Part shown: positions 38,998-58,451 of the stretch, in pieces | Layout of the letters: the number at the start of each line of letters is the position of its first letter | Position numbering within the stretch: the first letter of the stretch is position 1 | From: Ignavibacteriota bacterium | GTDB lineage: Bacteria; Bacteroidota; Ignavibacteria; Palsa-1295 | DNA length: 64,000 bases | Direction of reading: 5' to 3' | Assembly: GCA_963787835.1 (NCBI GenBank) | Contig: CAWBEI010000002.1 | Location: 640,001-704,000 of the forward strand | Position numbers and translations under genes: made by a program | Notes under the pieces: model-generated | What the model was told of the DNA's origin: nothing | Seen by the model: the letters and a program-made list of their open reading frames with translations, nothing else | Databases searched by the model: none

Positions 38998-40779
38998 ATG
39001 TCAAATACCAACGGAAAAGCAACAATGAATGGGCAGGCGCCGAGGTCGGCGCCCACCTCGCAGTCTTTTGAGCAAAGCAAGGAATACCAGGAAGCGTATC
39101 TGCTCTGGAAAGCCAAAGCGGAGGCGAGTCCCGAGACCGGGATGAAGTTCACCACGCTTTCGGGGAAGGCGCTGGAGACGGTGTATGCTCCGACCGGCAA
39201 TGGGGCGGACCCTTCGACAAGCTCAGGGCAGGCTCCGCGCAGCACGTCGCTACAAGATCCGAGCGCGTTCATTGAAAATATTGGTTTTCCGGGGCAGTTC
39301 CCATACACAAGGGGAATCCATCCGAATGGTTACCGTGGAAAGATCTGGACGATGCGGCAGTTCGCGGGATTCGGCACGCCGGAAGATACGAACGAGCGGT
39401 TCAAATATCTGCTTGCGCATGGGCAGACGGGGCTTTCCACCGCATTCGATCTGCCGACGCTCATGGGCCGCGATGCCGATGACCCGTGGAGCGAAGGCGA
39501 AGTAGGCATTTGTGGCGTAGCGATCAGTTCGCTCAAAGATATGGAGACGCTTTTTTCCGGCATCCCGCTGGATAAAGTTTCCACTTCGATGACGATCAAT
39601 TCGCCCGCGGCGATGATCTTTGCATACTACTTATGCGTGGCGGAACAGCAGGGCGTCCCCTTCAACAAACTGCGCGGAACGTTGCAGAACGATATTCTGA
39701 AAGAGTATATCGCACAAAAGGAGTTTATTTATCCGCCGGAACCATCGATGCGTATCATCACGGATATGATCGAGTTCTGCACGGCGGAAGTTCCGCAGTG
39801 GAATCCTGTTTCGGTGTCGGGCTATCATATTCGCGAGGCCGGCTCGACGGCTGCGCAGGAACTGGCTTTCACGCTCGCCGATGGCTTTTGCTATGTCGAG
39901 CATTGTATCGCGCGCGGGATGGATGTGGATGAATTTGCGCCTAGGCTATCGTTCTTTTTCAATTCGCATATCGACTTTTTCGAGGAGATCGCGAAGCTGC
40001 GGGCTGCGCGTAGAATTTGGGCCAGACGTTTGAAGGAGAAGTATGGAGCGAAGAGCGCGAAATCGCTTTCGCTACGGTTCCATACGCAGACAGCGGGATG
40101 TTCACTGACTGCTCAGCAGCCGGAGAACAATATCGTCCGCACGGCTTATGAAGCATTGGCCGGAGTGCTGGGCGGTACGCAATCGCTGCATACCAATTCG
40201 ATGGATGAAACGCTGGCGCTGCCAAGCGAGAAAGCAGTCAAGATCGCGCTGAGGACGCAGCAGATCCTGGCATACGAAACAGGCGTTATCAATACGGTCG
40301 ATCCGCTCGGAGGCTCATATTTTATCGAGTCAGAAACAGATCGTCTTGAACGCGAAGCCAATGCCTACTTCGATCAGATCGATGCACTAGGCGGCGTGAT
40401 ACCAGCGATCGAAGCGGGATTTTTCCAGCGAGAAATTGCGGACGCGGCGTACCGCTACCAGATCGAGCTCGATAAGAAAGAGAAGTTCATCGTTGGCGTG
40501 AACGAGTTCATTGAAAAAGATGAGAAGATCGATATTCCGATCCTGCAAATTTCGTCGGAAGTAGAACGATCTCAGAAACAGAAACTTGCAGAAGTGAAAG
40601 CGAACCGTTCCCAAACAGCGGTGGATGAATCCATCGAGGATATTCGCGCTGCCGGGTTCGGGCATACGAATCTGATGCCGCTCTTCATCAAGGCGGCACG
40701 GAACTATGTGACGCTCGGCGAAATGGTGAATACGCTGAAAGTTCCGTTTGGGGAGTATCAGGAATCGGTGGTATTTTAG
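38998..40779 (+). CDS. Methylmalonyl-CoA mutase, substrate-binding subunit (split type, no B12-binding domain)
   Basis: [31 protein letters not shown] and [10 protein letters not shown]; no DxHxxG domain. Confidence 0.93.
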
Positions 40780-49050: not shown

Positions 49051-49112
49051 CTACGAATTACAAGATTTTGCGGATTATGAGGATCGATATTTGATCTTTG
49101 TAATCCGCAATT

Positions 49113-50294
49113 TTACTTTAAATCAATATATCTTTTTATTTCGTCTTCATTAAATCCGTATCCCCGAAGTTCCTCAGCACTGAATCCTATCAACTCGGGC
49201 TCTGTATAAAGATGAAGTCCCGTCTTTTCCTCAACGATTTCGCGTACTTCTTTCACGACGGAAAGCACTTCGTCCGCAGTTGCCTCACGCGTTACGTTCA
49301 GCACCACAACCGGCTGAGTTGGATTTAGCTGCACATTCCCACGCTGAAATCCTTTTAGCCCACATGATTCCAGGATAAAAGCCGATGGAATTTTAAGAAA
49401 GGATGAAGGATGAGGGTTGAGGGATGAAGGGACGTATTTTAAAAGCCGTTCGATTTGTTCTGGAATATTCCTTTCGAAATGATCGCGGAGATTTTCGAAT
49501 TGTTCCAGCGATATTATAGAATTCTTGAAGAACGATCCCGCATTCCCTTCGACCGACTCTGCGGGAAATGGGAATTTCCTGTCACGTATGGTTTTGATCG
49601 CTTCACGAATTTCTCTGAGCGATGGCTCGGGATTTTCCTCAAACCATTTTTTTACATCTGGGTATGAAAGATTACGTTTGGGAGTCGTACTTAATACCAG
49701 TGTTGTGTAAAGAATGATGTAACGATTTTTCTCGGTGGTATTGAAGATGCTTTTGCGATAACTAAACTTGCATGCTTCATTCGATAATATCTGAAGAGTT
49801 TTCGTTGTTCGGTCGAAGACCTCTACATTCACCAGCACATCTTTGATTTCCTGCCCGTACGCCCCAACATTTTGCACGGCGACAGCTCCTGCCCTTCCTG
49901 GAATTCGCGAGAGGTTCTCTATTCCCCAAAACTCATGTGATACGGCAAATTTTACCACATCATCCCAAACTTCGCCAGAGGCAATTCGCAGTGTAGCGCA
50001 CATCGTAGGCGATGCTTCTTCAGTTTGCGATCCCGGCGCGGAGTCACAAACTAAAGTTTGCGCTACAATTCCACGATTCGCAATATGAATAACCAACCCA
50101 TCGAACCCTCGGTCACTTACAAGCATATTGCTCCCTCCGCCGAGGATGAGCACTGGCAAATTTTGGAATTCTGCAAACTCGAATGCCTCGCTAAGTTGGG
50201 CAGGATCGGTAATTTCGAAAAAATATCGTGCAGGGCCGCCAATCTTGAAGGTGGTGAGCGGTTTTAGGGGGCGGTTTTGTTCGATGGGAAGCAA
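49113..50294 (-). CDS. murB: UDP-N-acetylmuramate dehydrogenase with two repeat-derived insertions
   Basis: TTFKIGGPA, LGGGSN, IPG..GA..VQNVGAYG, FSYRKSIF and NAGSFFKN. Confidence 0.92.
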   Translation of the reverse strand: MLPIEQNRPLKPLTTFKIGGPARYFFEITDPAQLSEAFEFAEFQNLPVLILGGGSNMLVSDRGFDGLVIHIANRGIVAQTLVCDSAPGSQTEEASPTMCATLRIASGEVWDDVVKFAVSHEFWGIENLSRIPGRAGAVAVQNVGAYGQEIKDVLVNVEVFDRTTKTLQILSNEACKFSYRKSIFNTTEKNRYIILYTTLVLSTTPKRNLSYPDVKKWFEENPEPSLREIREAIKTIRDRKFPFPAESVEGNAGSFFKNSIISLEQFENLRDHFERNIPEQIERLLKYVPSSLNPHPSSFLKIPSAFILESCGLKGFQRGNVQLNPTQPVVVLNVTREATADEVLSVVKEVREIVEEKTGLHLYTEPELIGFSAEELRGYGFNEDEIKRYIDLK

Positions 50295-57761: not shown

Positions 57762-58451
57762 GTGATCGCTCGCCAAAATACATTCCTCACTCCCGAACTG
57801 GTGCTCGATGCGTACCGCCAAGGACTGTTCCCAATGGCCGATGCGCGTGGCGCAATCAGTTTCTATGCCTACGACCCACGAGGCATTATTCCACTCGATG
57901 ATCGATTCACCGTTCGTCGTTCCCTGCGTCATGTTTTAGAAAAAAAGAATTTTCGCGTTACATTCGATACCGCTCCGCTCGAAATCCTGCGTGGCTGTGC
58001 CCGCTTCGAAGAGAACATTCCCCCTGAGGAACGATGGCTCACCGAAGAACTCATCGAGCTGTATCTAAAGCTCTTTGAACTAGGTTACATGCACACCGTC
58101 GAAGTTTGGGGCATAATGGATAGTGGAAAGTGGATAGAGGATAACAAAGAGTTACCATCCGAACACCAGCCACCCACCGTCAACTATCCACTATCAACTA
58201 CCCTGATCGGTGGACTCTATGGCCTCACCTTCGGCGCGGCATTTTGTGGCGAGTCGATGTTCTCCCGCGCCCCTTACGCCTCACAGATAGCTCTGGTGTA
58301 CCTCGTCGAGCGGCTGCGCAGAAAAGGCTTCCAACTGCTCGACGCCCAAATGCCAAGCGAGCATCTCCAGCAATTCGGACTCTACGAATGCTCGCAGGAG
58401 CAGTATCTTCCGTTATTCCAAACCGCCGCAAAAATGGATGTAAAGTGGTGA
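57762..58451 (+). CDS. aat: Leucyl/phenylalanyl-tRNA--protein transferase with repeat-derived insertion
   Basis: AYRQGLFPM, DPRGII, HTVEVW, GGLYG, FCGESMFS and LLDAQ. Confidence 0.92.
   Translation: MIARQNTFLTPELVLDAYRQGLFPMADARGAISFYAYDPRGIIPLDDRFTVRRSLRHVLEKKNFRVTFDTAPLEILRGCARFEENIPPEERWLTEELIELYLKLFELGYMHTVEVWGIMDSGKWIEDNKELPSEHQPPTVNYPLSTTLIGGLYGLTFGAAFCGESMFSRAPYASQIALVYLVERLRRKGFQLLDAQMPSEHLQQFGLYECSQEQYLPLFQTAAKMDVKW

Follow-up and report, generated by a model that had tools for sequence, protein, structure and literature searches.

Intragenic GTAG REPs are often dimers that code for 20–30 residues, lie in known genes and are sometimes present twice per gene (Di Nocera et al. 2013; PMC3733652), and among the cases given in that account the REPs within one gene category are mostly at different sites, with Xanthomonas recB as the exception. 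Rickettsia palindromic elements (RPE), as presented in PMC10969869, are palindromic repeats that are translated in frame, as a recurrent peptide, in unrelated housekeeping genes. In-frame REPs in housekeeping genes are already known, as single events. Loop P6b of the Nostoc trnL intron is described as a tolerant loop that repeatedly and independently switches its class of repeat motif (PMC4476775), the intergenic heptamer repeats of Beggiatoaceae, Cyanobacteria and Bacteroidetes are reported as abundant, tandem and genome-dispersed 7-mers (PMC4679880), and the dimorphic small variable segments of PMC2884548 are portrayed as short intragenic blocks, mostly unrelated to known repeats, that are swapped between conserved flanks.

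We describe here murB, a cell-wall gene in an uncultured bacterium, which lies in a window of 64,000 nucleotides and carries repeat-coded segments at two sites. Like the GTAG REPs and REPtrons of PMC3733652, the palindromes at site 1 form an in-gene dimer with GTAG tags and belong to a family that flanks a RAYT gene; unlike the cases given there, a slot in this genus takes several unrelated repeat classes, the repeats stand in place of native residues, and the first hairpin has a second one nested inside it, although the supplementary list of that paper may hold closer cases. The occurrence of in-frame coding elements with a recurrent peptide in unrelated genes recalls the RPE of PMC10969869, but RPE are ~150 bp, whereas the elements here are 28–94 bp and belong to many families, including heptamer arrays, that replace each other at orthologous sites; as far as that account goes, they work like RPE yet, by length, are not RPE. 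Nostoc P6b, in the description cited, is an RNA stem-loop with two classes and without a frame constraint, whereas the MurB slots are protein loops with more classes. The heptamers reported in PMC4679880 are a different unit, and some of the arrays in the present genome are translated inside conserved genes. MurB residues 259–300 resemble the segments portrayed in PMC2884548, but this block carries a heptamer array. A literature search, largely of papers available without subscription, found none in which unrelated repeat families successively replace a single protein loop, which is a weak negative.

The movement of REPs and of heptamer arrays is poorly understood. Because a conserved single-copy gene provides fixed flanks, a slot within it is a natural before-and-after series, here comprising a native loop, a single REP, a doublet, a nested chimera, a same-length core swap, heptamer arrays and short loops, and this series makes the choice between insertion plus selection and repeat-on-repeat overwriting testable. 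The reading that we consider probable is that repeats have overwritten tolerant MurB slots one after another, in part repeat-on-repeat, that recombination has also exchanged these slots between lineages, and that selection has retained only the results compatible with frame and fold. It is this probable serial overwriting of one slot that would be new here, and the value of the locus lies in its allele series and its nested hairpin.

Copy number and integrity of murB

The genome that holds the window (G000; 3.57 Mb, 97.9% complete) has a single MurB_C match by profile, with six candidates scored, and a single murB locus by tblastn; a second murB, which the sequence-only reading had listed as something to look for, is rejected by both searches. 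The product (Table 1) has Pfam FAD_binding_4 and MurB_C domains and scores 183.8 bits against TIGR00179 (murB), above the cut-off of 144.5. The conserved MurB motifs remain in frame, as had been noted from the letters: the reading frame is open, and R180, Y211, S254 and E367 align with E. coli R159, Y190, S229 and E325, as numbered from the 1mbb alignment. We take R159 and E325 to be catalytic residues of E. coli MurB. Ser229 of MurB is named in PMC10058398. In a 102-row protein alignment used for conservation, R180 and S254 are invariant in the rows having a residue at those positions. With FAD-binding and MurB_C domains, the MurB fold, the catalytic Arg, Ser and Glu, and the Tyr190 loop, the protein has the features of a type I MurB.

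Table 1. Features of the murB locus, with positions given in the window.
Feature	Position	Strand	Description
murB	49113..50294	minus	393 aa, TTG start; long (type I-like) UDP-N-acetylenolpyruvoylglucosamine reductase; basis: ORF, Pfam, TIGR00179
Glu367 codon	49194..49196	minus	aligns with E. coli E325
Exchanged block	49395..49518	minus	124 bp, residues 259-300, between GSFFKNS and KIPSAF, carries the heptamers; basis: mosaic pattern and a relative's contig
Site 2, four tandem heptamers	49401..49428	plus	residues 290-298, SSLNPHPSS; predicted coil 288-299
Ser254 codon	49533..49535	minus	aligns with E. coli S229
Arg180 codon	49755..49757	minus	aligns with E. coli R159
Site 1, REP-A doublet carrying a nested hairpin (chimera)	49992..50067	minus	76 bp, residues 77-101, in place of the native hairpin segment
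Second arm, outer GTAG-bearing end	49992..50000	plus	supplies the last codons of MCAT, in predicted strand 97-105
Nested B hairpin unit, 17 bp	50001..50017		replaces two bases of the normal REP-A arm; net +15 bp, 5 codons; basis: G014 and other REP-A copies
Second inverted REP-A arm, inner part	50018..50030	plus	basis: REP-A arm comparison
Doublet spacer, 13 bp	50031..50043	minus	varies between copies
Intact REP-A arm, GTAG-tagged	50044..50067	minus	codes for VAQTLVC, predicted strand 76-83

An AlphaFold model of MurB built with 81 sequences has a mean pLDDT of 91.7, and its closest fold match is P. aeruginosa MurB (E 1e-34). Comparison of murB codons with those of the relative G014 gives 155 silent differences, 57 residue-changing differences and 173 identical codons, an excess of silent changes that we read as purifying selection. 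The gene is single-copy, as detected, and the enzyme is probably functional. That murB is instead decaying or misassembled, with the repeats marking relaxed selection or an assembly error, is hardly credible and already largely refuted. At this completeness of the genome a second copy could be missing, and the protein falls slightly below two NCBIfam PRK murB cut-offs (268.9 versus 277, and 226.4 versus 231), but the open frame, the invariant catalytic residues and the excess of silent changes all argue against decay. The same site-1 chimera is found in P0002, and a contig from another study crosses the site-1 region without a gap in the match, so that the site-1 element is not an assembly artefact. 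Contigs from RNA run X6 (5% of words present) come from a relative and bridge neither site, and runs X1 and X2 yield short identical pieces only.

Downstream, murB is convergent with a yceI-like gene, and the 18-bp inverted repeat between the two (49068-49110 of the window) is terminator-like; upstream, it is divergent from a cluster of radical SAM, queF, PTPS and queC genes. Homologs of this MurB carry the source names Bacteroidota or Ca. Kapabacteria, and one 47% hit carries the name Patescibacteria (P0071). Genomes from other genera of the same family (G015, G016, G019, G020, G023 and G024) have weak matches, in short frames of 308–316 residues, and the long murB of the genus may have displaced a short type through transfer.

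A GTAG REP doublet with a nested hairpin at site 1

Site 1 contains the 76-bp REP-type doublet and nested hairpin that had been recognized from the sequence, with CATCG-TAGG-CGATG at 50001-50014. The element, TGTAGCGCA...TGCGCTACA, is read on the minus strand as VAQTLVCDSAPGSQTEEASPTMCAT (residues 77–101). The same position in murB of G014 holds a plain 61-bp doublet without the 15 bp, and in G005 it holds 27 bp in which REP-A ends enclose a B-hairpin core, a length equal to that of a single REP-A. The chimera is shared with P0002, which both quick trees place as sister to G000 with an SH-aLRT of 99.

The segment from G75 to LRIASG is 7–13 residues long, usually 12, in more distant relatives, and the repeat-bearing alleles retain just the first one to three native residues, so that the repeat replaces the segment. 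Both segments had been described as insertions, and their repeat origin holds; pure insertion at either site is ruled out by the loop lengths of the orthologs, since site 1 has lost the native 7–13 residues and site 2 is merely 3–4 residues longer than the common allele. Among the DNA sequences compared at site 1 there is no sister pair with a native and a repeat allele, and the breakpoints of the first event are therefore not visible. The MurB model has strands at residues 76–83 and 97–105 and is less sure of the tip, where block means are 72 and 78, and the REP-coded residues are thus predicted to build a hairpin; the predicted strands may be inherited from native hairpins in the alignment. 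The expectation of surface loops agrees with the coil predicted at site 2, but not with a mere surface loop at site 1, where the ends of the repeat are predicted to lie in two strands.

The REP-A arm, GTAGCGCAAACTKYAGTTTG, has 44 matches in the genome with at most two mismatches, counted on both strands so that each doublet is counted twice, and a stricter pattern gives 21–127 matches in six genomes of the genus and 0–3 in the other nine. With its GTAG end tag, palindromic unit, dispersed copies and inverted doublets, REP-A has the attributes of a GTAG REP forming REPINs. An apparently intact RAYT gene at locus L159 (G000:C2:1501400-1502500), whose product scores 83.7 bits against NF047646 (cut-off 80), is flanked by a REP-A doublet and a single REP-A. 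Three REP-A arms lie within 700 bp at this locus, compared with none at the other eight Y1 loci examined. All 15 internal REP-A arm matches (nine elements in eight genes) read as VAQT or SQTxVCAT, with another open frame existing for each arm, and a length of 1 mod 3 is found for all seven complete coding REP-A elements versus five of nine non-coding rows, two of which are overlapping duplicates. This bias in frame and length fits selection on the translated product, in what is a small sample of copies that are not independent.

The nested unit belongs to a different type of repeat. CATCG-N4-CGATG is present at 106 sites in G000, while spacings of 2, 3, 5 and 6 give 12–14 sites and a spacing of 7 gives 33. 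The 16-bp hairpin GCATCG-N4-CGATGC, here called the B hairpin, occurs at 70 sites (for example G000:C2:587128, C2:1361539 and C4:236697), sometimes in 18-bp tandem units, and is abundant in seven of 15 genomes of the genus. Thirty of the 70 are no more than 35 bp from another repeat, the figures for randomly chosen positions being 17% in intergenic DNA and 4.6% in the genome as a whole; the B hairpin is a passenger, enriched beside other repeats. We have not filed it as a REP, and a separate REP family with its own transposase is unsupported by the GTAG ends and the Y1 loci: most of the 70 sites are without a GTAG end, and a transposase, like a cognate RAYT, was not found for it among nine Y1 loci, of which it adjoins just one, nested there in another repeat.

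We infer the following order of events at site 1. A GTAG REP doublet would have taken the place of the native hairpin segment, having likely been spread by the L159 RAYT that the family flanks, and in an ancestor common to G000 and P0002 the small passenger hairpin later probably replaced two bases of one arm by 17. A further proposal is tentative and on balance doubtful: resident repeats might act as landing pads, such that repeat-templated patching, including the nesting of transposase-less 16–18-bp hairpins in repeats, serially overwrites fixed slots of essential enzymes, and in MurB palindromic DNA would now encode both strands of a beta-hairpin. If this were true, selfish DNA would supply structured protein rather than floppy loops.

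Heptamers within a probably exchanged block at site 2

The units at site 2 are GGATGAA GGATGAG GGTTGAG GGATGAA; the earlier description of four GGATGAR-type heptamers translated as SSLNPHPSS is accurate, three of them being exact and one mismatched. No secondary structure is predicted for the heptamers (0 kcal/mol), and in the MurB model the block mean drops to 66 at this coil. Cyanobacterial STRR are tandem heptamer repeats, and G000 has an STRR-like genome-wide excess at period 7, with 161 arrays scoring at least 12, versus 0–19 for each other period from 4 to 12; the site-2 array scores 13.

The loop at site 2 is 15 residues long in G000 and 11–12 residues in the common allele, which is the one present in P0002. 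Between these two sisters, 16 of 26 residues differ in block 259–284 compared with 15 of 323 elsewhere (Fisher p 6e-13), in a block that is also fast-evolving in general. Here G000 is 77% identical to G014, 65% to P0012 and 35–50% to neighbours with the other allele, and the block of P0002 has 81–85% identity to five of its own neighbours. A contig of run X3, which comes from another study and belongs to a relative, aligns with both flanks of 49395-49518 and holds 112 different letters between them. The 124-bp block differs wholesale from that of the sister lineage, which makes recombination the most likely route of arrival for the heptamers. On the simplest reading, a block bearing heptamers entered the G000 lineage through homologous recombination between the two conserved motifs GSFFKNS and KIPSAF, the direction of transfer being presumed and the donor likely G014-like. 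The trees and the mosaic pattern indicate separate histories for sites 1 and 2, in support of the proposal that the two are independent, and murB trees in this group, being mosaic, call for caution.

On the E. coli alignment the site-2 peptide overlies PTAPNYPQADG, the segment with Tyr254, and on the P. aeruginosa alignment it is a six-residue addition after the Tyr. The E. coli segment presumably borders the substrate cleft. An adaptive role could be envisaged, with the new peptides or the hairpin in the mRNA adjusting the expression, turnover or substrate binding of MurB, and with site 2 placed at the Tyr254 hairpin. The strong folding of site 1 (z = −3.9 for the 76-mer, with none of 200 shuffles as good) and the recurrence of REP-A alleles on many branches (7 changes, 7 doublet rows) would be in keeping with such a role, as would the position of the site-2 peptide. 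We regard it as improbable, because unrelated enzymes carry the same peptides, most relatives are without Tyr at the site-2 position, and from one species to the next the peptides at a given site are unrelated and in many cases missing. The sequence-only reading had asked whether orthologs share the segments: some do, in that the site-1 chimera is also present in P0002, and the same heptamer class in G014 and G004.

Variably filled slots across the genus and in other genes

A segment was scored as repeat-coded at the DNA level if it held a 13-mer present more than four times in G000, or if over 13 of 21 positions were period-7 matches, the thresholds being the maxima of 126 background windows. 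Site 1 is repeat-coded in seven of 14 genomes of the genus scored, G010 being excluded, and site 2 in six of 14, where the period-7 test was used, the region is absent in G007, and G013 is borderline on the 13-mer test. The fillings of site 1 include the REP-A doublet, the chimera, the B-core, a G/C-rich inverted pair (G009) and three heptamer-like types (G006, G002 and G007); protein-only rows, judged by eye, add a single REP-A and other repeat-like peptides. Site-2 arrays in the genus use several different units. The G007 heptamer is found on four other contigs; the exact 16-mer of the G009 element has a single occurrence in G009, and the 17-mer from G001 has two in G001, so that dispersal of these within their own genomes is weakly shown. 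A metagenome scan added just six close loci among 79.

Since relatives fill both loops with different repeats, these are likely tolerated slots that have been rewritten by repeats, and not new working parts of the enzyme. The rewriting of loops in MurB is probably close to neutral, with presumed tolerance at the level of the protein, and two positions of MurB are marked as accepting very different sequence. On a quick tree from which the loops were left out, 19 changes are needed for 12 labels; these labels include L047 as 'no repeat' though its site 1 is cut off, and those of protein-only rows were set by eye. In this tree G017 has a long branch and falls within the genus. Resolution of the inner tree is poor, and its starred branches alone force no repeat class to more than one origin. 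Genus-wide, the slots were likely refilled repeatedly via repeat-on-repeat overwriting, loss and allele exchange, and only outcomes that keep the frame and are compatible with the fold would survive.

A repeat scan of G000 with a simple gene caller (2724 genes) gave 945 repeat intervals, of which 152 lie well within ORFs. The in-gene follow-up set aside adhesin-like repeat proteins, paralogous domains and the window's three hits, and yielded 37 genes with an internal in-frame repeat (L122-L158); 33 of them have Pfam hits, many to housekeeping functions. Three of these genes were aligned across the genus, and dxs (L135), tsaD (L137) and pheS (L152) each have one slot with different repeat-like fillings, in classes assigned by eye; the dxs linker has 24–38 extra residues in 10 of 13 genomes and 0–3 in the other three. 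Judged from these alignments, repeat-filled slots are not special to murB.

Selection could be the sole filter, if repeats insert at random and survive in the few permissive loops, and if old repeats and native residues are both lost by independent deletions, with an existing repeat attracting no successor. The presence of one or two slots in each gene checked is as expected if permissive sites are rare, the loops of 7–8 residues in G004, G003, G001 and G012 (12 in outgroups) could be excision scars, and P0019 retains a native-like VEY before a single REP-A. We nevertheless think this unlikely, because G005 has a core swap of the same length within REP-A ends, the G000 element is nested, B hairpins are enriched beside other repeats, and the slots mostly contain one element rather than the native loop plus an element. 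Serial overwriting, partly of one repeat by another, is the reading we prefer for these slots.

The repeat-bearing genes of G000 include those for an XerC/D-type integrase, Ppx, XseA, NusB, CoaBC, ValS, MgsA, MetH and NAD kinase, and an aromatic amino acid lyase gene has two REP-A doublets. In G014 the dxs frame (L169) stops just past the heptamer-filled slot, and in G006 dxs is split over two frames (L173/L174); each is either a real frameshift or an assembly error. The N-terminal part of G000 pheS is approximately 100 residues longer than, and unlike, that of other members of the genus. Two further in-frame repeats lie in ORFs of the window, at 39218-39235 (G000:C2:679218) and 58113-58143 (C2:698113).
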